Assembly (NCBI GenBank): GCA_030610945.1
Contig: JAUWQV010000002.1
Span: 156,633 to 220,632, forward strand
Source of the DNA: Methanocellales archaeon
GTDB lineage: Archaea > Halobacteriota > UBA148 > JAUWXC01
DNA: 64,000 nt
Direction: 5' to 3'
In this document: positions 4,941-42,181 of the stretch, piece after piece
How the letters are laid out: every line of letters begins with the position of its first letter
Position numbering within the stretch: the first letter of the stretch is position 1
Notes under the pieces: model-generated
Told to the model about the DNA's origin: nothing
What the model saw: the letters and a program-made list of their open reading frames with translations, nothing else
Databases searched by the model: none
Translations under genes and position numbers: made by a program

Positions 4941-6740
4941 ATGGCTGGATTAATGGGAAAAATTTTGAGAGTGAACCTTTCGAGCGGGAACGTTCGAGAG
5001 GAAATGATATCCAAAGACATTGCGAGAGCGTACATTGGCGGCAGAGGACTTGCATCCAAGATATTATATGATGAGGTGGACCCAAAAACGGACGCGCTTA
5101 GCCCTAAGAACAAACTGATTTTTGCAGTCGGACCGTTGGCAGGGACATCCGCACCGGCACCATCCAGATACGAAGTTGTAACGAAATCACCACTGACTGG
5201 AACTATCGCAGGGGCAAATTGCGGCGGATTCTTTGGTGCAGAACTGAAGAAAACTGGATTCGACGCGATTGTAATCGAGGGCAAAGCGGACAAGCCAGTC
5301 TACTTGTGGGTAAATGATGGAAAGGCAGAGATAAAAGACGCAGGATATCTCTGGGGCAAGAACACACACGAGACAACCGACATGATAGTCAAGGAACTTG
5401 GAGATGAAAAGGTAAGCGTTGCCTGCATTGGACCGGCAGGAGAAAATCTTGTGAGGTTTGCATGCGTGATAAGCGATAAGCACAGAGCGTCAGGCCGGGG
5501 CGGCGTTGGAACGGTCATGGGTTCCAAGAGTTTGAAGGCTATTGCTGTCCGCGGAACAAAGAAGGTCGAAATCGCAAAGCCTGATGCATTCGAAAAGGCT
5601 GTGAAAGATTGCATCAAGAAGCTCAAGGATAACCCAATCACTGGACAAGGGCTTCCAACATATGGAAGTGCCATTCTGGTAAACATAATAAATCAAAGTG
5701 GAATATTTCCCACGAGGAACTTTCAGACAGGCGTTTTTGAAGGCGCTGAGAAGATAAGCGGGGAAACAATGAAGGACACGATTCTTGTTAAGAACAAGGC
5801 GTGTCACGGTTGTCCAATCGTTTGCGGCAGAGTAACCGAGGTCAAAGGAAAGTACGCTGGCAAGGGAGAAGGTCCTGAATATGAGACCATATGGGCGTTT
5901 GGCGCACAGTGCGGCGTAGATAATCTCGAGGCAATTGCGAAGGCAAACTACCTCTGCAACGAACTCGGCATTGACACGATTACAATGGGCAACACGATTG
6001 GGTGTGCGATGGAACTCTCCGAGAAAGAGTATCTCCCTGAGAAAGATGTGGGGATGAGGCTCACTTTTGGAGATGCAGATGCAATCGTTGAATTGACCAA
6101 GAAAACCGCATATAGAGACGGCTTTGGAGACGTTCTGGCAGAGGGGTCGTACAATCTTGCGGAGAAATACGGCCATCCTGAATTATCAATGAGTGTCAAG
6201 AAGCAAGAACTGCCTGCATACGACCCAAGAGGGGTGCAGGGACACGGACTCGAGTACGCAACATCCAACAGGGGCGGCTGTCACGTTAGGGGTTATATGA
6301 TTGCACCCGAGATTCTTGGCGTTCCAGAGAAACTCGATCCTCTGGTCACAGAAGGTAAAGCCGGGTGGACCAAGACGTTCCAAGATTTGACATCAGTTGT
6401 GGATTCGTGCAACATATGCCTGTTCACGACTTTTGCGCTGGGCGCAGACGATCTTGCGGCATTGCTATCCGCAGCGACAGGATTTGACTACACCACTGAA
6501 GAAGTTATGAAGGCAGGAGAGAGAATCTGGAACATGGAACGACTGTACAATATACGGGCTGGATTTGGCAGAAACGACGACACGTTGCCAGAGAGGTTGT
6601 TGAAGGAGAAGATGCCGGAAGGTGCAGCAAAAGGACATGTCTGGGAAAGAGATGCACTGTTAGGCGAGTACTACAAGGTCAGAGGCTGGGACAAGAACGG
6701 AGTCCCAACAAAAGACAAACTGAGGGAGCTTGGTTTATAA
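4941..6740 (+). CDS. aor: Tungsten-containing aldehyde:ferredoxin oxidoreductase
   Basis: The ORF is 599 aa with an AOR N-terminal signature (GKILRVNLSSG...YIGGRGLASKILYDEV), conserved CHGCPIVCGR cluster cysteines and a C-terminal WDKNGVPT motif. Confidence 0.95.
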   Translation: MAGLMGKILRVNLSSGNVREEMISKDIARAYIGGRGLASKILYDEVDPKTDALSPKNKLIFAVGPLAGTSAPAPSRYEVVTKSPLTGTIAGANCGGFFGAELKKTGFDAIVIEGKADKPVYLWVNDGKAEIKDAGYLWGKNTHETTDMIVKELGDEKVSVACIGPAGENLVRFACVISDKHRASGRGGVGTVMGSKSLKAIAVRGTKKVEIAKPDAFEKAVKDCIKKLKDNPITGQGLPTYGSAILVNIINQSGIFPTRNFQTGVFEGAEKISGETMKDTILVKNKACHGCPIVCGRVTEVKGKYAGKGEGPEYETIWAFGAQCGVDNLEAIAKANYLCNELGIDTITMGNTIGCAMELSEKEYLPEKDVGMRLTFGDADAIVELTKKTAYRDGFGDVLAEGSYNLAEKYGHPELSMSVKKQELPAYDPRGVQGHGLEYATSNRGGCHVRGYMIAPEILGVPEKLDPLVTEGKAGWTKTFQDLTSVVDSCNICLFTTFALGADDLAALLSAATGFDYTTEEVMKAGERIWNMERLYNIRAGFGRNDDTLPERLLKEKMPEGAAKGHVWERDALLGEYYKVRGWDKNGVPTKDKLRELGL

Positions 6741-9352: not shown

Positions 9353-10621
9353 TTATATACTAGGGTGCACATTCCCGCTCATTCTAATTAGTGGCTTAGA
9401 GATATGCCTCCTTGCAGAAGGAGGCACCTCATACAGTCCCAAATCTAGTTGCCCGTCGATAGGGACATACTCGGGTGTGTCAGCATGTGTTCCACACCTC
9501 TTGCACCTATACCCCTGATTGTGCCCGGCAGATTTCATTCTCTTTCCGCAGTCACAAACCGGGTTTTGTCTAATGAAGCGCCCTACAAGCGATGTGATTT
9601 CAATCTTTTCGAGATTGATTGTATGGTTCTTTGCAGCGCCGTAAACGGTTACTTTGTCGCCAACGCGTAGCTTTCGCACCACATCCCTGAAGTTTTTCGT
9701 TGGCTCATACGCTGCGCAGTCGATTTTATGCCCATTTTCTGCGATGGAGAAGATGACATGCCCTCCTTCAATCGTACGCGGTGGAGCGCTTACGACTCCT
9801 CCCAAGATATACGAACGCTCATCCTTTACTGAAGCCATTTCACCCTCCACGAGGTGCGCATCGGTACCCTGATTGGTCTTGAAGAGAATGTGCCGCCCCA
9901 CTGGCTCCGATTTAATCACCTCAAATGCCTTCTGAATCGCATCCACATCATCGCCCCGGATACCAAAGAGCACGGGACATGGTGAACTGGGCGAGAATAC
10001 GATTGTATTGTTGGCGAGGTCTACGGTGCCCCATGTCAGTGGATATGTTGCCCTGTTCGCATTGAATACCGATTCCTCGTCGATGTGCCTCGGGGTGCCG
10101 CATCGCTCTCTCTGTCGGTAGGCAATTAGTTCATGGGTATGGTCTTCCTCCAACGTTGCGCCTACCGCAGCCAGCGCACCGATAACCCCCCGCCCATTCT
10201 TAAATGCATGCACCTTGCCATATCTCCCAGCAAGATCAATCGCCTCTTTGATGCTGATGATGTCCTGTACCGCCCTTTTGGAAAACTCCTTTACTTCTTC
10301 AGGAATCTCATCCAAGATTACGATGCCAGGATTCGTGTTGGGGACATTAAACTCTGCCATCTCCTCCACGGTGCGAACAACAGTGTCTTCAATTCGCAGT
10401 GCGCAACCGCCCTTTTCCTCAAATTGAATAGCAACAGCACCATTCCCTCTTGTTTTATATCTGATGTTTGGATTCAGCCTCACCAACCTGGGGCAGCCGA
10501 TTAGTTGCCCATAATCTTGTAGCCGCTCCACTAATACTGTAGCCAAATATGTAGTGCACATGCCGTTTTTTGAGTCAGTATCGTCGATTCCAATATACAT
10601 TGTTGCTCCGAGTACCATCAC
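9353..10621 (-). CDS. tiaS: tRNA(Ile2) 2-agmatinylcytidine synthetase
   Basis: The ORF is 422 aa with the signature N-terminus MYIGIDDTDSKNGMCTTYLA, so the real start is possibly at 10600. It has a C-terminal Zn ribbon (CDCGKRMKSAG..YRCKRCG). Confidence 0.85.
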   Translation of the reverse strand: MMVLGATMYIGIDDTDSKNGMCTTYLATVLVERLQDYGQLIGCPRLVRLNPNIRYKTRGNGAVAIQFEEKGGCALRIEDTVVRTVEEMAEFNVPNTNPGIVILDEIPEEVKEFSKRAVQDIISIKEAIDLAGRYGKVHAFKNGRGVIGALAAVGATLEEDHTHELIAYRQRERCGTPRHIDEESVFNANRATYPLTWGTVDLANNTIVFSPSSPCPVLFGIRGDDVDAIQKAFEVIKSEPVGRHILFKTNQGTDAHLVEGEMASVKDERSYILGGVVSAPPRTIEGGHVIFSIAENGHKIDCAAYEPTKNFRDVVRKLRVGDKVTVYGAAKNHTINLEKIEITSLVGRFIRQNPVCDCGKRMKSAGHNQGYRCKRCGTHADTPEYVPIDGQLDLGLYEVPPSARRHISKPLIRMSGNVHPSI

Positions 10622-15496: not shown

Positions 15497-16129
15497 CTAC
15501 GTCAATGGACTCGCCCTTTTGGAGAGTTCTTCTTCACCTAAGACTCTATATTTATCTGGCGTGATCGTGACTACCTCTATTCCATCACCAGAGGCGGCGT
15601 CTCGCTTGATGGCAGCGTGTAGCGCCCGTATTGCCAGGTTGACGCCTTCGTCCAACGACATGTTGTCTTTATATCTGTCTTCTAAGATGCCATATGCAAT
15701 AGGTGAACCCGAGCCCGTAGCAACCACTTTTGTTTCCTCTATCTGACCGCCCAGTGGGTCCAACGAGAAGAGACGTGACCCTTTGGTATCAACCCCTCCA
15801 ATAATCAGCTGGGTCATATATGGAAAATATCTCTGTGTGCTCAGGATATTAGATAACAGTGTAGAAACTGCACCAACTGCCATGGGCTCCCCTCTTCGAA
15901 TCTTATAGAGTTTTGCTTCTATTGTAATTATCCTCGCCAGAACCTGGGCATCACCAACCGCACCTGCAGTAGTCATGCCAATTCGATCGTCAACCTGGTA
16001 TATCTTTTTCGCGTCTCTACTCGCGATGAAAGTGCCCATAGTCGCTCTTTTTTCGCTTGCCAATACAACGCCGTTACCACAGACTAAGCCAACCGTAGTG
16101 GTTCCTTTGTATCTATTGTCGCTAACCAT
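15497..16129 (-). CDS. psmB: Proteasome beta subunit
   Basis: The ORF is 210 aa. A propeptide is followed by the catalytic [21 protein letters not shown] sequence. Confidence 0.95.
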
Positions 16130-16320
16130 CTTTATCCCCTTTAATCAAAACCAGGAAAACCAGTTACATACTCCTTAGTCATTTCCATATTTAAGCCTTG
16201 CTATGCAATGCCATCTTTAAAATCGCAAATCCTAAACCCCCTCTTAGTTCCATAAAAACTATCAAAGAAGCATATAATATGGAGACGAAATATAAATATG
16301 AGTAATAGGATAATGGCATC

Positions 16321-16557
16321 ATGAATTTGATAGGAAAGTACATGGAAAATGTACTTGTATTCTCCGCCAAGGCATTTAACGAGGCACATCAACAAAGCCT
16401 GAAAGCAACACATACGCCTGAGCAGGAATTGACTATAAGAGCATATGATGCGATAAAAAATCTTGAGACAAAAGGACACGAAATAGACCTAATCATCGTA
16501 CTTATGGGACAAATGATCATCCTGTACGGGAATGATAAATACATTGTGATAAAATGA
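16321..16557 (+). CDS. Hypothetical small protein
   Basis: The 78-aa ORF has a 4-nt ATGA overlap with the next ORF. I recognise no family. Confidence 0.3.
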   Translation: MNLIGKYMENVLVFSAKAFNEAHQQSLKATHTPEQELTIRAYDAIKNLETKGHEIDLIIVLMGQMIILYGNDKYIVIK

Positions 16558-16838
16558 ATCCTGATTTCACGCGCCTTGCAATTTGGATGTGTGCATTCTT
16601 TGCAATAACGTTGACCGCGAGGTTCATCTTTTTAGTTAGAAATATCATGCAATCCGGCAGAAAGGCAATCAGGGATGTGCTACGACAATCAGGCGGCGAG
16701 ATATTTTACTTTGATATGGTGGAACAAACTGGTTTTTCCAAGGCAAGGATTGAGATTTTGCTCAGGGACATGGAGAGAAAGGGCATGATCCAAAGGGTTC
16801 CGCAGGGAGAAGACATTTTGATCAAACTCATCGAGTGA
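16554..16838 (+). CDS. Membrane-anchored winged-helix-like protein
   Basis: The 94-aa ORF has one N-terminal TM helix. A wHTH-like segment follows (MVEQTGFSKARIEILLRDMERKGMIQRV). Confidence 0.45.
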   Translation: MNPDFTRLAIWMCAFFAITLTARFIFLVRNIMQSGRKAIRDVLRQSGGEIFYFDMVEQTGFSKARIEILLRDMERKGMIQRVPQGEDILIKLIE

Positions 16839-17344
16839 TGGTTGTGAGATTCGTAGTTGACAGGATGTTGGGTAAACTGACCACTTGGCTCAGGTTGCTC
16901 GGTTATGATGTGGTCAGCGCAAGCGATTTTGACCTGAGTGCGGAAGAGGATGACCTGTTATTGAACCTGACAAAAGAGGGAAGAATTCTTCTCACGAGAG
17001 ATAGGGCGATTAGGTCAAAAGCGGAGAAACAGGGCATGCCGATTTGTTTCATCCACTCTGACATGGCGATAGAGCAACTGGAAGAAGTGTATTCCTGCTG
17101 CAATATTCAGCTGGAGCCAAAAATAAGCAGGTGCACGATATGCAATACCTCCATCAGAAAGGCAAGAGCAGAAGATGAAGACGCACTAAGAAAAAAGGAT
17201 TATGTACCGGACAGACTGATTGGCACCATCGATTTCTGGGTGTGTGATAACTGCGGGCAGGTCTACTGGGAAGGCAGCCACTGGGATAACATTAGAAAAA
17301 GGATGGATGAGTTAAAGAAGAAGTTATCGCTGAAGATTTTATAA
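16838..17344 (+). CDS. Mut7-C (DUF82) PIN-like RNase domain protein with C-terminal Zn ribbon
   Basis: The ORF shows FVVDRMLGKLTTWLRLLGYD, LLTRDR and CTICN...CDNCGQVYWEGSHW. The ATG at 16838 overlaps the upstream TGA. The track ORF starts at a GTG at 16835. Confidence 0.8.
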   Translation: MVVRFVVDRMLGKLTTWLRLLGYDVVSASDFDLSAEEDDLLLNLTKEGRILLTRDRAIRSKAEKQGMPICFIHSDMAIEQLEEVYSCCNIQLEPKISRCTICNTSIRKARAEDEDALRKKDYVPDRLIGTIDFWVCDNCGQVYWEGSHWDNIRKRMDELKKKLSLKIL

Positions 17345-17540
17345 CTACCTTCTGGGGGGGGCGTTGCCAGTGAGATAAAAAGGAGGTGAAAAGTTAGAAA
17401 AACTCTGCCAAATTAAGAAGTTCGCTTTAACCCCCAGATTAGATGCTAAAACGAGCGAAAAATTCGATAAATAGTCGTTAAATACAATAAATTCAGAGCC
17501 CCTCGATAAATTTATATTCTTACTCTAATTCTAATAAATT

Positions 17541-18197
17541 ATGGATGTTAGAAAATCAATCAATCAATTTTTAAATGGACAAGGCAAAAACAAAGGAAGA
17601 TTGCCTAATGAAAGATATGCTTCCTTTGATTATTGTTACAATTATTTTTATTCATTCTATAAAGAGAATAAACTTAGCGAGTTATCAAATGATAAAAATT
17701 TACAGATAAGTTGTTTACAATTAGGTTTTTATCTCGCTAGCTGGGGGATGATGAGGGGGTCGTCTTTTCTGCTTGAAAAAAGCGTAAAAAATTATACAAA
17801 ATTAATAATCGCGATTTCTAACATGGATCGAAAATTATTGGAAATTGATGTAGACAATTACACTGAAGAAAATATTAATCTCTTGTTAGATTGTAAACAA
17901 CGAATTATAGACGCTCTTGGTAAAGAGAATAATCCGAGTGATACGTTAGTAACAAAAATAATGTTGGGTGTTTTTGCTAATATTCCTGCTTTTGATCAGT
18001 ACGTTAAAAAAAGTTTGAAAGTTTATTCGGTTAGCAAGAAATCATTATTAAAAATAAAAGAGTTTTACGAGAGAAACAAATCTATCTTTGACTCCTTTGA
18101 AATTCACACCTTTGATTTTTTAAGTTCTAAAGAGACAAATGTAGTATATACAAAAGCAAAATTGATTGATATGTGTGGTTTTATGGATGGGCAGTAA
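17541..18197 (+). CDS. Hypothetical protein (orphan in an AT-rich islet)
   Basis: The 218-aa ORF is uninterrupted in very AT-rich DNA and has a Lys/Asn/Ile-rich composition. I recognise no family. One distinctive motif is ERYASFDYCYNYFYSF. Confidence 0.55.
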   Translation: MDVRKSINQFLNGQGKNKGRLPNERYASFDYCYNYFYSFYKENKLSELSNDKNLQISCLQLGFYLASWGMMRGSSFLLEKSVKNYTKLIIAISNMDRKLLEIDVDNYTEENINLLLDCKQRIIDALGKENNPSDTLVTKIMLGVFANIPAFDQYVKKSLKVYSVSKKSLLKIKEFYERNKSIFDSFEIHTFDFLSSKETNVVYTKAKLIDMCGFMDGQ

Positions 18198-35736: not shown

Positions 35737-36301
35737 TTTTGGCATCCATGAAGGCATATCAGAGGTCATTGCCACCACAATATCATCAACTGGAAAGCCA
35801 AACGCTGCGCCGATTGGCATTATATCTGATGGAAAGATGTATGCCATAATTTATCCCAATACGCACACTTACTCAAACATTAAGGCAACAAAAAAACTTG
35901 TTGCAAATATCGTAAGCGACGCCTTGTTGTTCGTGTTATCCGCGTTAGGAGATTTAGACGAGAAGGAGTTTTATACAGTCGATGAAATGCCAGCATTGAG
36001 ATATGCAGATGCCTGGGTGCTATTTGAATGCGAGAAAGATGGACAAGATGATACTCTGATACATTTACATCCCACAAAGGGCAAAATCCTTCGAAAGAGA
36101 GTGCGGGCAATCAACAGGGGCACCAATGCCGTAATCGAGGCAACGATACACGCTACGCGCTATCTGGCTACGAAAGACGAAAAGTATCTAGAGTGGATTG
36201 CACATTACGAGGAAATCGTGAAAAAATGCGGTGGCGCGCGCGAGAAAGAGGCGATGAAAAAGTTGAAGGAGTTCTTGAGGGGTAGGTATGAAGAATCGTG
36301 A
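35720..36301 (+). CDS. DUF447-family (FMN-binding split-barrel-like) protein
   Basis: The 193-aa ORF overlaps the citG-like gene. Its N-terminus GISEVIATTISSTGKPNAAPIGI is typical of DUF447. Confidence 0.8.
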   Translation: MMKLRDFGIHEGISEVIATTISSTGKPNAAPIGIISDGKMYAIIYPNTHTYSNIKATKKLVANIVSDALLFVLSALGDLDEKEFYTVDEMPALRYADAWVLFECEKDGQDDTLIHLHPTKGKILRKRVRAINRGTNAVIEATIHATRYLATKDEKYLEWIAHYEEIVKKCGGAREKEAMKKLKEFLRGRYEES

Positions 36302-36310
36302 TTCGTGTCA

Positions 36311-36577
36311 TTACTTCTTATAGATTTTATCGTGATGATTGTAATCCTCTATAATCACCAATTTCTTGGACTCACCAACGGAAAATACCAATACAAAACT
36401 CTTGTCTATATGAACCCGTTTTAAGTGCTGAAGAGGTCTTCTTAAATTTTTGTAATGGTGTGGGTTTGTTCTTATTTCTTGAATCTTTTCATAAATGGTT
36501 TCTAACTGCTTTGGATTCTCTTTAGCAAGCTTAAAGAAAATCTTCTCTACAGATTTTCTTAATTCAACATCGTACAT
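36311..36577 (-). CDS. RelE/ParE-superfamily type II toxin
   Basis: The ORF is 88 aa with a pattern like that of archaeal RelE/YafQ-like toxins (NPHHYKNLRRPLQHLKRVHIDKSFVLVF). It starts 1 nt after the stop of the upstream small gene. Confidence 0.75.
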   Translation of the reverse strand: MYDVELRKSVEKIFFKLAKENPKQLETIYEKIQEIRTNPHHYKNLRRPLQHLKRVHIDKSFVLVFSVGESKKLVIIEDYNHHDKIYKK

Positions 36578-36578
36578 T

Positions 36579-36824
36579 CTATTCTAATCCAAAATGCTTT
36601 CTAAAATCCTTTACGATAACAGTAGGTTCCCTCTCCCTACTCCTCATTTTTTCTATGAACTCCGGTCTAAGTTCTGGTTCTAAAAATTCTTGTTCGTATT
36701 CGTCGATTATTAATCTTAGTGCCTCTGACTTATTTCTTAAACCGAACTTTCCTTTAACGATATTCACGATTCTGTCCTCATACTCACTTAGATCTACAAT
36801 TGCTTTGACCATGACAACCGCCAA
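36579..36824 (-). CDS. Cognate antitoxin candidate (DUF2683-like)
   Basis: The ORF is 81 aa and contains VDLSEYEDRIVNIVKGKFGLRNKSEALRLII. It sits immediately upstream of the toxin. Confidence 0.65.
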   Translation of the reverse strand: MAVVMVKAIVDLSEYEDRIVNIVKGKFGLRNKSEALRLIIDEYEQEFLEPELRPEFIEKMRSREREPTVIVKDFRKHFGLE

Positions 36825-36921
36825 TTATGTTTTATTACCACTTATGATGTTTTACTATAGAGTATAATATTATGTTATTTAAATTCTTCTTAGAGAAGTG
36901 CAATTGTGGATAACGTTCCCA

Positions 36922-37080
36922 GTGTATGCGAAGTTGCCCATAAAGGTAATTTGGGCGAGGGCGTCAGCCCGAACCGCATACACCGTGTTATACGCACCCG
37001 ATAGGAACGAGGGAGCGACAACGACCGAAGAGTCGTGGGCAAAAAGCCCGTTCCCTTTATGTTCATGTGGTATATGCACG
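36922..37080. ncRNA. Candidate structured RNA of unknown class (two nested three-way junctions)
   Basis: This non-coding patch is G+C-rich inside an AT-rich islet.
- Stem 36922-30/36975-83 (9 bp) encloses hairpins 36934-40/36952-58 and 36959-62/36967-70.
- Stem 37004-08/37050-54 encloses hairpins 37021-25/37032-36 and 37037-40/37046-49.
- An outer helix forms between 36984-97 and 37067-80.
The strand is undetermined. Confidence 0.35.
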
Positions 37081-37092
37081 CCCTACCTTTAC

Positions 37093-37683
37093 TCAACTTA
37101 CAAACTGGATAATGCCATCGATACATTTTTGTTTGTCTTTTTTCCATTCAAATTCCCAAATGACAACTAACTCAACCCCCATCTCTTTGAAATATTCTTT
37201 TCTTTCCTCCTCTTCATTTGCTCGATGCCAATGCTCGCCAAATAGGTCGATGCATTTATTTGTTCCTTCAACAATAAAATCTGGATTTTTTCTACCAACA
37301 AAGAGGGAAAAATCCCCGGTATATCTTAAATTTGGAATGTAACCAATCATCGTTTGGAAAAAATCCAATTCCAATTTATTTGGCTTCAGGTTGAGAGAGG
37401 CTTTCATTTTCTCCTGGTATTCTTTATCTTCCCATCTCTTTTTGATCATTTTTATTTTAATATTTGGTTTAAAATAAACTTTATTTACTGCAAAAGTCAG
37501 TTTGCATTCTTGACAACTGATTAAAAAAGGCGGTTTCTTCTGTTTAAAGTAAAGGTCATAAATATCATAATACGCTTTGCATATTGGGCATCTTACCTGC
37601 ATTCTTCTATTTCCAATATCCAAGTATGCAATTCGTTCTATTACCTTTTTTCCCATGAAATCACCAACTAGGATAGTTGTCAA
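37093..37683 (-). CDS. Zn-ribbon protein with a C-terminal Vsr/DUF559-like (PD-(D/E)XK-type) nuclease domain
   Basis: The ORF is 196 aa. The N-terminal ribbon is CPICK...CQEC. The C-terminal NPDFIVEGTNKCIDLFGEHWH...VVIWEFEW matches the Vsr-type endonuclease core pattern. Confidence 0.6.
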   Translation of the reverse strand: MTTILVGDFMGKKVIERIAYLDIGNRRMQVRCPICKAYYDIYDLYFKQKKPPFLISCQECKLTFAVNKVYFKPNIKIKMIKKRWEDKEYQEKMKASLNLKPNKLELDFFQTMIGYIPNLRYTGDFSLFVGRKNPDFIVEGTNKCIDLFGEHWHRANEEEERKEYFKEMGVELVVIWEFEWKKDKQKCIDGIIQFVS

Positions 37684-37745
37684 TATATATAATTTTGTCC
37701 TCTTTAAGTCGCTTCACTCCCTCCTTTAAAATCGCCTGCCATCAG

Positions 37746-38699
37746 TCAATCTATTTCACTTAATGTCTTTTTCACAAAATCAGGCTCATAAATAATATCA
37801 AGCTTATCTATCCTTTTGAACAAATTTTTTAATCCTTCATCATACTTTTTATCCGATTGAATGTACTCTTTAAACCATTTCTTTATCATTATCTCAACTT
37901 GATCTACATCTACAAAATATCCCGTGGGTACTAAAACTCCTCCAAACTCTTCAAATATGCCTTTAGAAATTTTCGACGGCTTTCCAATACTGATTAATAA
38001 CTCATTTGCAATAAAATCGGGCACGATTTTATCCGCGATAATATCCCATAACCCGTTTTCCTCAATCCAATCAAGATTAAAGGAGTCATTAGTGTTTATG
38101 TGAATTAACTCGTGAATAATACTATGAGTCACATCATCTCTATTGGGTTCTATCCATTTATCGCTGGGATTGATTAAAACAGAAATTACGTTAAAACCAG
38201 GGATAGTATGCCCTGTACCAACTTCAGAATCAAATAACCCTTCATAAAACCTCGCAATAAAAACTGTGACTGATTTTCTTTTCCATTTTGCCTTTGTAAG
38301 AGTTTGTATATTTTTAACAACCTCTCCAAAATCTATGTCTTCCAACACCAATTCCTTCATTCTAAGGAAACGATCTTTATCGATTCCCCAATCTGTATCA
38401 TAAGCCATCAATGCGTTTTTAAAATATTTGATATGGCTTTTGCCTACTTTTTCTTCGATTATCTCACAAATATACTGATCAGATGATATTTCATTGGCTA
38501 TGAGTAGCATACCTAGTAATTCCCAAAACAATTTTGTTTTTGCTTTGTTTCTGTGATAAGGCTTTGCTAATTCATGTACAACACCTTTATCGAATTGTTT
38601 TATATCAATTGACTGATTTGATGTTCCATGCCAAAGTCCCAAGGCAATATTTCCTATTGTTGCATATTTCGAGATTTTAATTTCAATATTTGGAAACAT
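37746..38699 (-). CDS. Hypothetical HExxH (zinc-metallopeptidase-motif) protein
   Basis: The 317-aa ORF is AT-rich with a single HELIH motif (SIIHELIHIN). I recognise no family. Confidence 0.5.
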   Translation of the reverse strand: MFPNIEIKISKYATIGNIALGLWHGTSNQSIDIKQFDKGVVHELAKPYHRNKAKTKLFWELLGMLLIANEISSDQYICEIIEEKVGKSHIKYFKNALMAYDTDWGIDKDRFLRMKELVLEDIDFGEVVKNIQTLTKAKWKRKSVTVFIARFYEGLFDSEVGTGHTIPGFNVISVLINPSDKWIEPNRDDVTHSIIHELIHINTNDSFNLDWIEENGLWDIIADKIVPDFIANELLISIGKPSKISKGIFEEFGGVLVPTGYFVDVDQVEIMIKKWFKEYIQSDKKYDEGLKNLFKRIDKLDIIYEPDFVKKTLSEID

Positions 38700-38940
38700 T
38701 CCCTACCCCCTATTATCTCAAGTTACTATCTATCATGTAGCTTGTTAAACATTCTTCCTCATATCCAAGCACCTTTTTATCACATTTTGGATGTGCATAT
38801 ACCTTTCTTTACCTTTTGCTCACGATTGCGTATAACAACATATCAACGCATTGCGTTAATACTGTTTAATTTAACAAAAAGGCGCATAAATTATCTTGGT
38901 TATGCTCATTTTATGGTACTCGTTTAAACTAAAACTTGAA

Positions 38941-39690
38941 ATGGATGCCATTAAGAAGGTTAAAAGTCATATTGAAGATTTACAGATTCTTGCGGGAGAG
39001 ATAAACATGAACATCGCATGGGGCATTACCGGCGCCGGGCATCTTTTGCAGGAAAGCTATGATGGTATGAGAGCGCTTGCGCAGAAACATCAAATCACGA
39101 CATTCGTGTCGGGCGCGGGCGAAGAAGTGCTGCGCATGTATGGTTTGCTCGACAAATTGAATGAAATATCCGGCGGAGAATATCTGCGCGAAATCATCTT
39201 CGAGAGCGAAGCGGGAGCGAGCGCGCCAAAAGCAGGGCGCTTTTTACTGAAGAAATATGATGCATTGATCGTATCGCCTGCAACATCTAACACGGTTGCC
39301 AAAATCGTGCACGGAATTGCAGATTCTCTTATCACGAATGCAGTTACCCAGGCCAACAAAAGTGGGACGCCGGTGTACGTAGTGCCAGTGGACCTAAGTG
39401 GCGAAGTAACATCGCCGCTCCCATATCATATAGACAGAGAGCTTTGCAAGAAGTGCGATGAATGTCCGCCGAAGGACAAGTGCCCTGAGCATGCAATCTC
39501 GGACCAGATTGACCTGTTAAAATGCACTGGGTGTGGCGTCTGCATTGACCTTTGCCCGCACGATGCCATCAAGGGAGGAAATGTGATGCTCAAGGTACGC
39601 GATATCGATGCACACAATGTAAAGACGTTACGCTCCATGAACAGTATCACTGTCTTAGACCATCCGAGCAAGATTCTAACGGTGCTTTGA
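38941..39690 (+). CDS. Archaeoflavoprotein (AfpA-like) fused to 2x[4Fe-4S] ferredoxin, DmrX-like dihydromethanopterin reductase
   Basis: The flavoprotein core shows IAWGITGAGH and SPATSNTVAKIVHGIADSL. The C-terminus has the Cys clusters CKKCDECPPKDKCP and CTGCGVCIDLCP. The start is uncertain, with candidates at 38896, 38941 and 39007. Confidence 0.75.
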   Translation: MDAIKKVKSHIEDLQILAGEINMNIAWGITGAGHLLQESYDGMRALAQKHQITTFVSGAGEEVLRMYGLLDKLNEISGGEYLREIIFESEAGASAPKAGRFLLKKYDALIVSPATSNTVAKIVHGIADSLITNAVTQANKSGTPVYVVPVDLSGEVTSPLPYHIDRELCKKCDECPPKDKCPEHAISDQIDLLKCTGCGVCIDLCPHDAIKGGNVMLKVRDIDAHNVKTLRSMNSITVLDHPSKILTVL

Positions 39691-42035: not shown

Positions 42036-42065
42036 TCTGGCCTTAGCTCAAAAATACAACCCCTT

Positions 42066-42138
42066 GCCCGGGTAGTGTAGTGGCCTATCATGAAGCCCTG
42101 TCGAGGCTTCGACTCGGGTTCAAATCCCGACCTGGGCG
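42066..42138 (+). tRNA. tRNA-Asp (GTC)
   Basis: - Acceptor stem: GCCCGGG/CCTGGGC.
- Anticodon arm: AAGCC-CTGTCGA-GGCTT.
- T arm: TCGGG-TTCAAAT-CCCGA.
- Discriminator: G. Confidence 0.9.
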
Positions 42139-42181
42139 TTTGCATATTAGCGTAGCATTGTCTCAAGTTTTTCCTTAGTAT

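Follow-up and report, generated by a model that had tools for sequence, protein, structure and literature searches.

A probable attC-like recombination site at the end of a gene cassette inserted in the chromosome of a Methanocellales archaeon

The DNA considered here is a stretch of 64,000 nucleotides (nt), referred to as the window, from contig JAUWQV010000002.1 of a Methanocellales archaeon (GenBank assembly GCA_030610945.1, positions 156,633 to 220,632 of the forward strand); all coordinates without a contig name are positions in this window. Between a gene for a Vsr-like nuclease and a toxin-antitoxin pair lies a non-coding element (36922-37080) that a first-pass annotation, made from the letters alone, had put forward as a novel structured RNA, that is, a free-standing, G+C-rich and strongly paired unit made of two folded domains (Domains 1 and 2), covered by no convincing open reading frame (ORF) and not matched to tRNA, SRP RNA, RNase P RNA, C/D-box sRNA or group II intron domain V. 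Its account of the surroundings was roughly right, the nuclease having weak Pfam matches and the pair consisting of a ParE-like toxin and a DUF2683 partner. The element is the terminal part of an inserted gene cassette, and the evidence presented below suggests that it serves as a recombination site resembling the attC sites of integrons.

All the stems drawn in the first-pass annotation are found in the sequence where it had placed them (36900-37095; see Table 1), and the minimum free energy fold of the plus strand over this interval reproduces them, except that AGGGAGCG/CGUUCCCU replaces GGAAC/GUUCC. At -70.8 kcal/mol, this fold is more stable than that of any of 200 dinucleotide shuffles (-53.7 +/- 4.5 kcal/mol, z = -3.84), while the minus strand folds at -67.8 kcal/mol (z = -2.33). 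The G+C content peaks at 0.53 in the element, against approximately 0.33 in the 2.6-kb islet around it and 0.47 in the host background, which bears out the description of a G+C-rich, strongly paired stretch. The element is single-copy within the window. Scanning the whole window against Rfam at gathering thresholds gave no match on it, and lowering the threshold to E <= 10 over 36700-37300 returned only chance-level snoRNA and Gut-1 matches. A Pfam search with the four ORFs crossing the element gave zero matches, and hence no sign in those ORFs of the decayed protein gene that had been named as one of the cases that would overturn the RNA proposal; the region is indeed non-coding. The only match of the window in ARAGORN or, at gathering thresholds, in Rfam, a tRNA-Asp (GTC) gene at 42065-42139 (42066 in the Rfam scan), is unrelated to the cassette.

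The decisive contrast came from a comparison of the DUF2683 gene, which led to contigs carrying the same chromosomal locus (L015-L019) in the order flavoprotein, approximately 200 nt, DUF2683/toxin, DUF447 and CitG. In L015-L019, this locus has neither the gene for a 317-residue protein nor the nuclease gene nor the structured element: similarity to the window ends at 36894-36914 and restarts at 38825-38869 and 38998. The empty site of these relatives reads ...TTAGCGCAATGCGTTAATATGTTGTTATACGCAAT-TGCAATTC..., and the filled locus of the window has ...GTTG TTATACGCAAT-CGTGAGCAAAAGG... at its left junction (with the break at host GTTG|TTATACGCAATCGTGAGC, or GTTG|TTATACGC...) and ...CACTGGGAACG TTATCCACAAT-TGCACTTC... 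at its right junction (break at GGGAACG|TTATCCACAATTGCAC, or ...GGGAACG|TTATCCAC...). Both junctions are compatible with a G|TT crossover, though the breakpoint is ambiguous over 12 shared nt; if the break is at G|TT, the insertion measures approximately 1.92 kb (36914-38835). As syntenic relatives lack this 1.9-kb stretch, it represents an insertion, of which Domains 1 and 2 form the last 180 nt or so, and the idea of a free-standing unit falls. The insertion occupies a pre-existing hairpin-plus-GTTAT site between the flavoprotein gene and the toxin-antitoxin pair, the latter being host backbone that is present at the locus in the cassette-free relatives.

The two genes of the insertion also travel elsewhere. 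The nuclease has only 7 detectable homologues, and the same two-gene nuclease cassette is found in other contexts in L001 and L003/L011, with 90% DNA identity for the gene of the 317-residue protein in L001/L002. Downstream of the nuclease stop codon, the DNA of L010 stays similar to the window for approximately 26 nt, that of L001 as far as 37007 and that of L003/L011 as far as approximately 36986; Domain 1 is never part of this similarity.

A 20-nt motif taken from the start of the cassette (RCGCAATCGTGAGCAAAAKG) is found in 62 metagenome contigs, nearly all of which also keep flanks that were not selected for (GTTAT directly upstream and, often, CTTAA downstream). Copies in L064, L066, L074 and L079 lack the GTTAT context and look like chance matches, as does the single match of the junction pattern among viral contigs (L082); the Domain 1 and Domain 2 patterns had zero matches in the viral contigs, and the only match of the Domain 1 pattern in the genome collection (L013) is in a coding region of a high-G+C bacterial metagenome-assembled genome (MAG), and is a chance match as well. 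Upstream of the junction, two kinds of sequence are found. The first, class A (approximately 30 loci), is homologous to Domain 1 of the window: it starts with GCGTATAAC, an A and a stem arm of 9-12 nt, continues with a GGYTCG... hairpin, CNCCCAAAT, a second hairpin and ACTTC, and ends with the complementary stem arm, 5-7 nt and GTTAT. The second, class B, consists of 2-3 palindromes of the type GGATATACGAC-ATCGAT-GTCGTATATG separated by CCAAAAT-like spacers, then 5-8 nt and GTTAT. In the relatives of the window, the empty site is of the class B kind; in the window, the palindrome TTAACGCA-ATGCGTTGA comes first, then TATGTTG and the G of G|TTAT, and this target site is similar to the hairpin-repeat sites found ahead of the first cassette in arrays.

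Read on the minus strand, the class A site of the window is 94 nt long and starts with TGCGTATAAC (R''-like, 36996-36987), AC and the stem arm GTGTATGCG (36983-36975), followed by two variable hairpins around CCCAAAT, then ACTTC, the stem arm CGCATACAC (36930-36922), TGGGAAC and GTTATCC (R'-like, 36914-36908). It is the only strong match in the window of R1, a covariance model of the family that was scanned over the related loci and the window. In the related loci, R1 retrieves 79 sites at E <= 3.1e-05, corresponding to 77 distinct sequences with lengths of 75-153 nt (median 96).

The first-pass annotation had named covariation among homologous loci as a check on its fold, and compensatory changes are indeed found. 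When 27 class A sites were aligned with MAFFT, blind to structure, RNAalifold recovered the closing stem of Domain 1 together with the second hairpin, and 14 of 15 pairs show compensatory changes. When the R''/R' helix is added, 87.5% of cells are paired (70.9 +/- 1.0% in shuffles), and the covariation score is 0.451, as compared with 0.140 +/- 0.014 for shuffled alignments (0/500 reach the observed value) and at most 0.126 with slid partners. In the main stem, 8/8 pairs have changed on both sides and 90% of cells are paired, and the enclosed hairpins differ in length and sequence among the aligned sites. The R''/R' helix is 82% paired but shows little covariation, as R'' varies and R' stays almost constant. 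As the folding of the long stem is kept while its sequence varies freely, selection acts on the structure and not on a double-stranded sequence read by a protein. Covariation alone cannot tell folded single-stranded DNA from RNA.

The best conserved parts of the family are its ends. TAAC and GTTA are invariant or nearly so in the 27 aligned sites, and among the 77 distinct sites the R'' box is most often GTATAAC (34 sites), ATATAAC (9) or GCCTAAC (8) and the R' box GTTATAC (29), GTTATAT (10) or GTTAGGC (5), the window having GTATAAC and GTTATCC. The third box position is often A/T where the attC consensus has Y/R. A variant R' tail is found in two sites (GTTATCCACAAT in the window and GTTATCCAAAAT in L071b), and these are exactly the ones without a consensus cassette start after them, which suggests that TTAT... 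belongs to the unit downstream (the next cassette or the host) and that crossover would take place at G|TT. The bottom strand (opposite to the genes, and hence the plus strand of the window) folds better in 71/77 distinct sites and in the window. Counts of G-U versus A-C in the stems (approximately 14 versus 11) show no clear strand bias.

The outer parts of the fold involve the opposite end of the cassette. The sequence CGTGAGCAAAAGG (38812-38824) has an inverted copy, CGTGGGCAAAAAG, at 37034-37046 (helix H1), and GTGCATATACC (38793-38803) one at 37069-37079, GGTATATGCAC (helix H0), which also pairs locally with 36984-36997 in the outer helix of the first-pass annotation. In L001, both arms of H0 carry a matching change (GGCATATGCA / TGCATATGCC). 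The arrangement holds in most of 52 complete cassettes, where TTATACGCAA at the 5' end is followed by 13-16 nt whose reverse complement is found 30-45 nt upstream of R'' in the 3' site of that cassette. Where the 5' end deviates, the 3' segment deviates to match (L020, AATTCGCCCGCAGGAA, 16 nt; L080, TTGCCCGCATTTC, 13 nt; L027, TGCCAGAGCCC, 11 nt; L071, TTGGCAAACA, 10 nt). Kilobases separate these arms when the cassette is integrated; they would come to lie side by side only in a circle that has been excised, or where one cassette of an array meets the next. The junction of a reconstructed circle folds in silico with an outer helix, a 10-bp R box and an L stem on either strand. In L071 (147-401), two family sites are only 87 nt apart and delimit a gene-less mini-cassette, the ends of which form the 10-nt inverted repeat TTGGCAAACA.

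The long-range pairing bears on Domain 2, of which the first-pass annotation had given a purely local fold. While the structure of Domain 1 is kept across relatives, the inner helices of Domain 2 (GGGC/GCCC and GGAAC/GTTCC) are present only in the window copy. The GGGC-AAAAA-GCCC hairpin uses one arm of H1 and is absent from L001, L003, L059 and L078; it exists because the window copy reads GCCCACG, not GCTCACG. What is typical of the family is a spacer of 30-45 nt, conserved as sequence in several cassettes, and nearly identical copies of the window spacer (36997-37033) are found at the 3' end of unrelated cassettes (after a nucleotidyltransferase gene in L001, at approximately 5690-5745 in L059 and at approximately 2180-2238 in L078). 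In L001, GCAAT-CGTGAGCAAAA precedes the small nucleotidyltransferase gene and also the pair of genes for a 324-residue protein and the nuclease, and the nucleotidyltransferase gene has GGGCATTTTGCTCACGAC...GGGATGCGTATAACA behind it, in the position that Domain 2 takes relative to the nuclease gene of the window. A guide-like RNA tied to the nuclease was rejected on this ground, the same tail following an unrelated cassette.

Relatives of the element occur in arrays that open with a hairpin-repeat site and continue with 1-5 cassettes; each cassette holds 1-4 co-oriented genes and is closed by a family site. The new R1 matches are preceded by a class B site or by another class A site: L020 has a class B site at 6452 and family sites at 9796 and 12526, L080 and L071 each have five sites (in 3.8 and 2.5 kb, respectively), and L024, L030, L040 and L072 carry similar arrays. 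In all arrays examined, the genes between sites all point to the next site, and the two cassette genes of the window are likewise co-oriented toward theirs. Among the proteins encoded by the cassettes are an AbiV-type HEPN protein, a NOV_C/ATPase protein and, in the window, the Vsr-like nuclease; no protein family recurs in most of the family loci.

A motif scan followed by tblastn revealed a gene coding for a tyrosine recombinase in some of the related contigs. It is complete in L077 (3-1097) and L035 (1472-2557), and a fragment or cut by the contig end in L044, L059, L069, L063, L020, L081, L056, L052, L073 and L050. In approximately nine contigs (L077, L035, L044, L059, L069, L063, L020, L081 and L056), it is located upstream of a class B site and co-oriented with the cassettes. 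The gap between the end of the gene and the site is approximately 60-150 nt, as read directly in L077, L059 and L044, which share the order recombinase stop, hairpin-repeat site, G|TTAT, cassette and site. The fragment in L050 is downstream of the array, and L052 and L073 carry fragments elsewhere. In L020 (6153-6329) and L063 (6063-6239), only the last 59 or so codons of the recombinase are found upstream of the hairpin-repeat site, followed by intact arrays; these two look like decayed platforms. The array recombinases pass the NCBIfam XerA model NF040815 (240-248 bits for a cut-off of 220), the product name of which is 'site-specific tyrosine recombinase/integron integrase'. Their closest solved relative by sequence is the integron integrase VchIntIA (2a3v, E = 3e-44), and archaeal XerA (5hxy) aligns to them in one piece. 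They possess an extra N-terminal region of approximately 85 residues (...HRWHPEGKYWSFP...). More than 7,900 clusters match the recombinase at E <= 1e-40, with source names that include Nitrospirota, WOR-3, Stahlbacteria, Thermodesulfobacteriota, Acidobacteriota and Micrarchaeota; such homologues carry a precomputed PF22823 domain, not reported by the Pfam copy used here.

Table 1. Features of the cassette, its terminal element and its immediate surroundings (window coordinates)
Feature	Coordinates	Strand	Remarks
ParE-like toxin and DUF2683 partner	36311..36824	-	host backbone; present at the locus in cassette-free relatives
attC-like class A site (Domain 1 and flanks)	36903..36996	-	model R1, 84.3 bits, E = 6e-19
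Domain 1 closing stem	36922-30 / 36975-83		GTGTATGCG / CGCATACAC; encloses two hairpins
Domain 1 hairpin 1			TTGCCCA / TGGGCGA
Domain 1 hairpin 2	36959-70		GGGC-GTCA-GCCC
Outer helix	36984-97 / 37067-80
G+C-rich spacer between long-range arm and R''	36997..37033	-	ACTCTTCGGTCGTTGTCGCTCCCTCGTTCCTATCGGG; holds CGAC-TCTTCG-GTCG hairpin (that of 37021-36)
Domain 2 hairpin	37021-36		ACGAC-CGAAGA-GTCGT
H1 3' arm	37034..37046	-	CTTTTTGCCCACG in cassette sense; inverted copy of 38812-38824
Domain 2 hairpin	37037-49		GGGC-AAAAA-GCCC
H0 arm	37069..37079	.	GGTATATGCAC; 11-nt perfect inverted repeat with 38793-38803
Cassette gene 2, Zn-ribbon and Vsr/REase_MTES_1575-like nuclease	37093..37683	-	weak Pfam matches to Zn_ribbon_4 and REase_MTES_1575
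Cassette gene 1, 317-residue protein with HExxH motif	37746..38699	-	no family
H0 second arm	38793..38803	.	GTGCATATACC; near the cassette 5' end
Conserved cassette 5' end	38812..38835	-	TTATACGCAAT-CGTGAGCAAAAGG; last 13 nt are the H1 5' arm
Host-side class B-like target site	38836..38880	-	same sequence in uninserted L015-L019

Taken together, the position of the element exactly at an insertion junction, its integron-type boxes, the presence of its relatives in cassette arrays and the pairing with the far end of the cassette indicate that an RNA gene is not the best explanation for it. We consider it probable (at roughly 0.78) that the element is the attC-like recombination site of a single gene cassette located at an orphan primary site. 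What the first-pass annotation saw as a novel structured RNA thus combines a structure that is real and selected for pairing with a molecule and a function that were probably misjudged, given the boxes, the insertion junction, the arrays and the long-range helix. The cassette would move as an excised circle, with a predicted junction reading ...CACTGGGAACG|TTATACGCAATCGTGAGCAAAAGG... (...GGGAACG|TTATACGCAATCGTGAGC...). One strand of this circle, probably the bottom one (the plus strand of the window), would fold by pairing TGCGTATAAC with GTTATACGCA to form the R box and GTGTATGCG with CGCATACAC to form an L-type stem; further out, the two cassette ends could pair through H1 (37034-37046 with 38812-38824) and H0 (37069-37079 with 38793-38803). 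The folded site would mimic a double-stranded target site, at which a tyrosine recombinase provided in trans may exchange strands at G|TT. If the acting recombinase of this genome is like that of the related contigs, it would be an IntI/XerA-like protein without the IntI-specific domain, encoded in those contigs upstream of the arrays and in the orientation of the cassettes.

Integrons have been reported in Archaea, mostly as attC clusters without integrase (PMC9668308), one of them in a MAG labelled Methanocellales (PMC9668308, Data S1), and a Hadarchaeota attC begins with GTATAAC and ends with GTTATAC (PMC9668308, Data S9). The family described here resembles attC sites in having complementary start and end boxes of the RYYYAAC and GTTRRRY types (mostly GTATAAC/GTTATAC, with the canonical GCCTAAC/GTTAGGC also present), in being an imperfect palindrome with a structure kept over sequence and a variable terminal structure, in the compatibility of its junction with a G|TT crossover and in the better folding of its bottom strand. 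Integron attC sites are about 57-141 nt long and are located at the 3' end of the cassette. Family sites are within a comparable range (75-153 nt) and lie 3' of promoter-proximal, co-oriented genes in tandem arrays, with cargo that likewise includes toxin-antitoxin and defence-type genes. The two differ in their inner architecture: family sites have no canonical L box (..CAGCCGAC..), a spacer of 2-3 nt by 5-7 nt instead of approximately 5 by 5, no recurrent extrahelical bases in the stem, conserved CCCAAAT and ACTTC sequences inside the 'variable' part, an extra long-range helix with a G+C-rich bulge of 30-45 nt outside the R box and, in many cassettes, a conserved 25-nt 5' end. The Vibrio cholerae repeats (VCRs) are long attC sites (approximately 120 nt) that show high identity among the cassettes of one lineage; the family site is likewise long, but its signature is kept across contigs of many environments and, judging from the recombinase homologues, many phyla.

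A similar mixture of likeness and difference is seen at the level of the platform. As in integrons, a tyrosine recombinase gene is found beside a primary site made of repeated, recombinase-type binding units and followed by a cassette array, and many arrays have no recombinase, a situation comparable to that of the clusters of attC sites lacking integron integrases (CALINs). Unlike that of integrons, the recombinase has no IntI-specific domain and has some 85 extra N-terminal residues, its gene is co-oriented with the cassettes and not divergent, and the primary site consists of hairpin palindromes, orphan copies of which are found between housekeeping genes, as in the window.

Several observations weigh against a cassette site of this kind. 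The motif scan and tblastn found no recombinase gene or fragment in the window, which holds a single cassette and no array, and most arrays start beside housekeeping genes with no recombinase nearby. The array recombinases reach 221-232 bits on the integron integrase model TIGR02249, under its cut-off of 265, and align to it in two pieces; their residues 254-282 align opposite residues 175-245 of 2a3v (29 residues versus 71, or approximately 42 fewer), a gap which corresponds to the location of the IntI-specific domain. A canonical attC model (R2, built on 10 sequences only, namely aadA7 and nine archaeal attCs, with a consensus structure composed of the R box, a 6x6 loop and an L box with a bulge) gave no match at the element when run over 36000-39500 with filters off at E <= 10, and its best scores for family members are marginal (11.7 bits, E = 0.77, and 10.6 bits, E = 1.6), indicating that the L-box, spacer and extrahelical-base signature is not canonical. 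An R2 match in L044 (6456-6500, minus strand, 45 nt, 23.3 bits, E = 2.5e-4) is within a 282-residue ORF that is translated through it and is probably due to chance. The exact crossover cannot be placed within the 12 nt common to both junctions. Finally, the gene-sense strand of the 77 sites holds 33 copies of CTTCGG and the opposite one 0 (for TTCG and CGAA, the counts are 151 and 22), which may betray a role at the RNA level. In a transcript this sequence makes a C(UUCG)G tetraloop, while the opposite strand reads C-GAA-G, a very stable DNA mini-hairpin motif, so that the asymmetry could reflect either the tetraloop on cassette transcripts or the mini-hairpin on the recombining strand. A secondary function in RNA, such as 3'-end stabilisation of cassette mRNAs, is possible.

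That the element is primarily a functional RNA, either a stabiliser or terminator in the 3' untranslated region of a minus-strand mRNA or an independent plus-strand small RNA antisense to the 3' end of the nuclease gene, seems unlikely in spite of its strong folding, its strong covariation and the tetraloops of the cassette-sense strand, to which can be added the transcription of integron attC sites themselves within cassette mRNAs and, by eye, an A/T-rich TTTAAAT (36879-36885) upstream on the plus strand and T-runs (37126-37142) downstream. Such an RNA would have no Rfam match and would end exactly at the insertion junction; its invariant parts would be the terminal TAAC and GTTA boxes, not loops or junctions, one of its conserved pairing partners would be 1.8 kb away, across genes, and its relatives would always sit at cassette boundaries, some with a recombinase nearby. 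The better-folding strand, moreover, is the one without UUCG loops, which read there as C-GAA-G.

Movement of the cassette by the host XerA on dif-like double-stranded sites, with neither a folded strand nor a dedicated integrase, as in the integrative mobile elements exploiting Xer (IMEX) and pdif modules, would fit the absence of a recombinase gene from the window, the scores of the associated recombinases on the XerA model and the hairpin-repeat sites, which are palindromes of an 11-6-11 type (GGATATACGAC-ATCGAT-GTCGTATATG, for example); we also take GGTGCGTATAA to resemble the XerC arm of the Escherichia coli dif site. Common to family and Xer/dif elements are Xer-like recombinase relatives, arms rich in A/T (..TATAA / TTATA..) and inverted sites at the borders of the modules. 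We nevertheless regard this explanation as quite improbable: the G|TTAT junction is 5-8 nt past the right arm of the palindromes, thus outside them and not at the edge of the 6-bp centre, the long stem varies freely with its pairing kept, such structure-level covariation favouring a folded single strand, and by sequence the best structural relative of the recombinase is an integron integrase. Even less can be said for the structured end of a transposon, be it one with terminal inverted repeats or a single-strand transposon of the IS200/IS605 kind, which we find hardly credible. Inverted repeats are present at both ends (CGTGAGCAAAAGG / CTTTTTGCCCACG and GGTATATGCAC / GTGCATATACC), together with a subterminal hairpin and an insertion beside a fixed short sequence, but neither a transposase nor TnpA or TnpB is encoded in the cassette, the inverted repeats are not flanked by a target-site duplication, and the same ends delimit cassettes whose genes are quite different. 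Independent copies also share the sequences next to the repeats (GCAAT at one end and ACWCT at the other), meaning that the mobile unit extends beyond the repeats.

Starting from the attC-like site, it can be proposed, tentatively and as something that may well prove wrong, that the element represents a broad class of systems of Bacteria and Archaea, with an IntI-related recombinase devoid of the IntI-specific domain and encoded in the direction of the cassettes, sites combining integron-type R boxes with a different inner architecture and a long-range helix formed only in the circle, and orphan primary sites among housekeeping genes that capture single, often defence-type cassettes, such as the nuclease cassette of the window. 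In the literature consulted, the coverage of which was incomplete, we found no description of such a site family or of an integron-like system with Xer-type recombinases.

As for the cassette genes, the ORF of the nuclease has 196 codons, with a probable true start that would give a protein of 187 residues. The 317-residue protein has no Pfam or PADLOC match, and its HExxH motif reads SIIHELIHINT. Wherever it is found (window, L001, L002 and L010), the Zn-ribbon/Vsr-like nuclease accompanies it; the two may constitute a two-gene defence or restriction-like module. PADLOC returned nothing for the four islet proteins. The nuclease domain has a single distant homologue (P0006, with 48% identity across 55% of the query), which is found in L004-L009 (L004 5001-5678, for example), contigs with many small co-oriented genes without Pfam match and a virus-like look. 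On the host side, the neighbouring genes code for CitG, DUF447 and a flavoprotein-ferredoxin fusion and, like a 92%-identical DUF2683 protein from a Methanocellales MAG, point to a methanogen-type archaeon. L018 (6001-6754) has DUF2683 followed by a ribbon-helix-helix protein and a ParE toxin in place of the 88-residue toxin of the window, and L014 (6001-6502) has the DUF2683/toxin pair in another context, adjoining DDE transposases. A second A+T-rich stretch of the window (16000-18000, G+C content 0.386) contains small ORFs; model R1 found no family site in it, and a near-match to CGTGAGCAAAA at 16756 is within a coding region and looks like chance.

If the element is the site of a cassette, a mystery structured RNA would become a recognisable marker of gene-cassette traffic in an archaeon related to methanogens, and the locus would provide an exact before/after example of a cassette landing in a chromosome. 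An archaeal cassette in itself has been unsurprising since 2022; what would be notable, if upheld, is a broad integron-like system that lacks an IntI-type domain. The IntI-specific domain is currently used to define and find integrons. Folded, attC-type capture would then not be limited to recombinases that have it, and surveys relying on this domain or on canonical attC models would miss the family, the recombinase relatives of which number in the thousands and the cassettes of which carry defence-like genes (AbiV-like HEPN, NOV_C/ATPase and Vsr-like nuclease). The site model R1 offers a direct handle for finding such cassettes.

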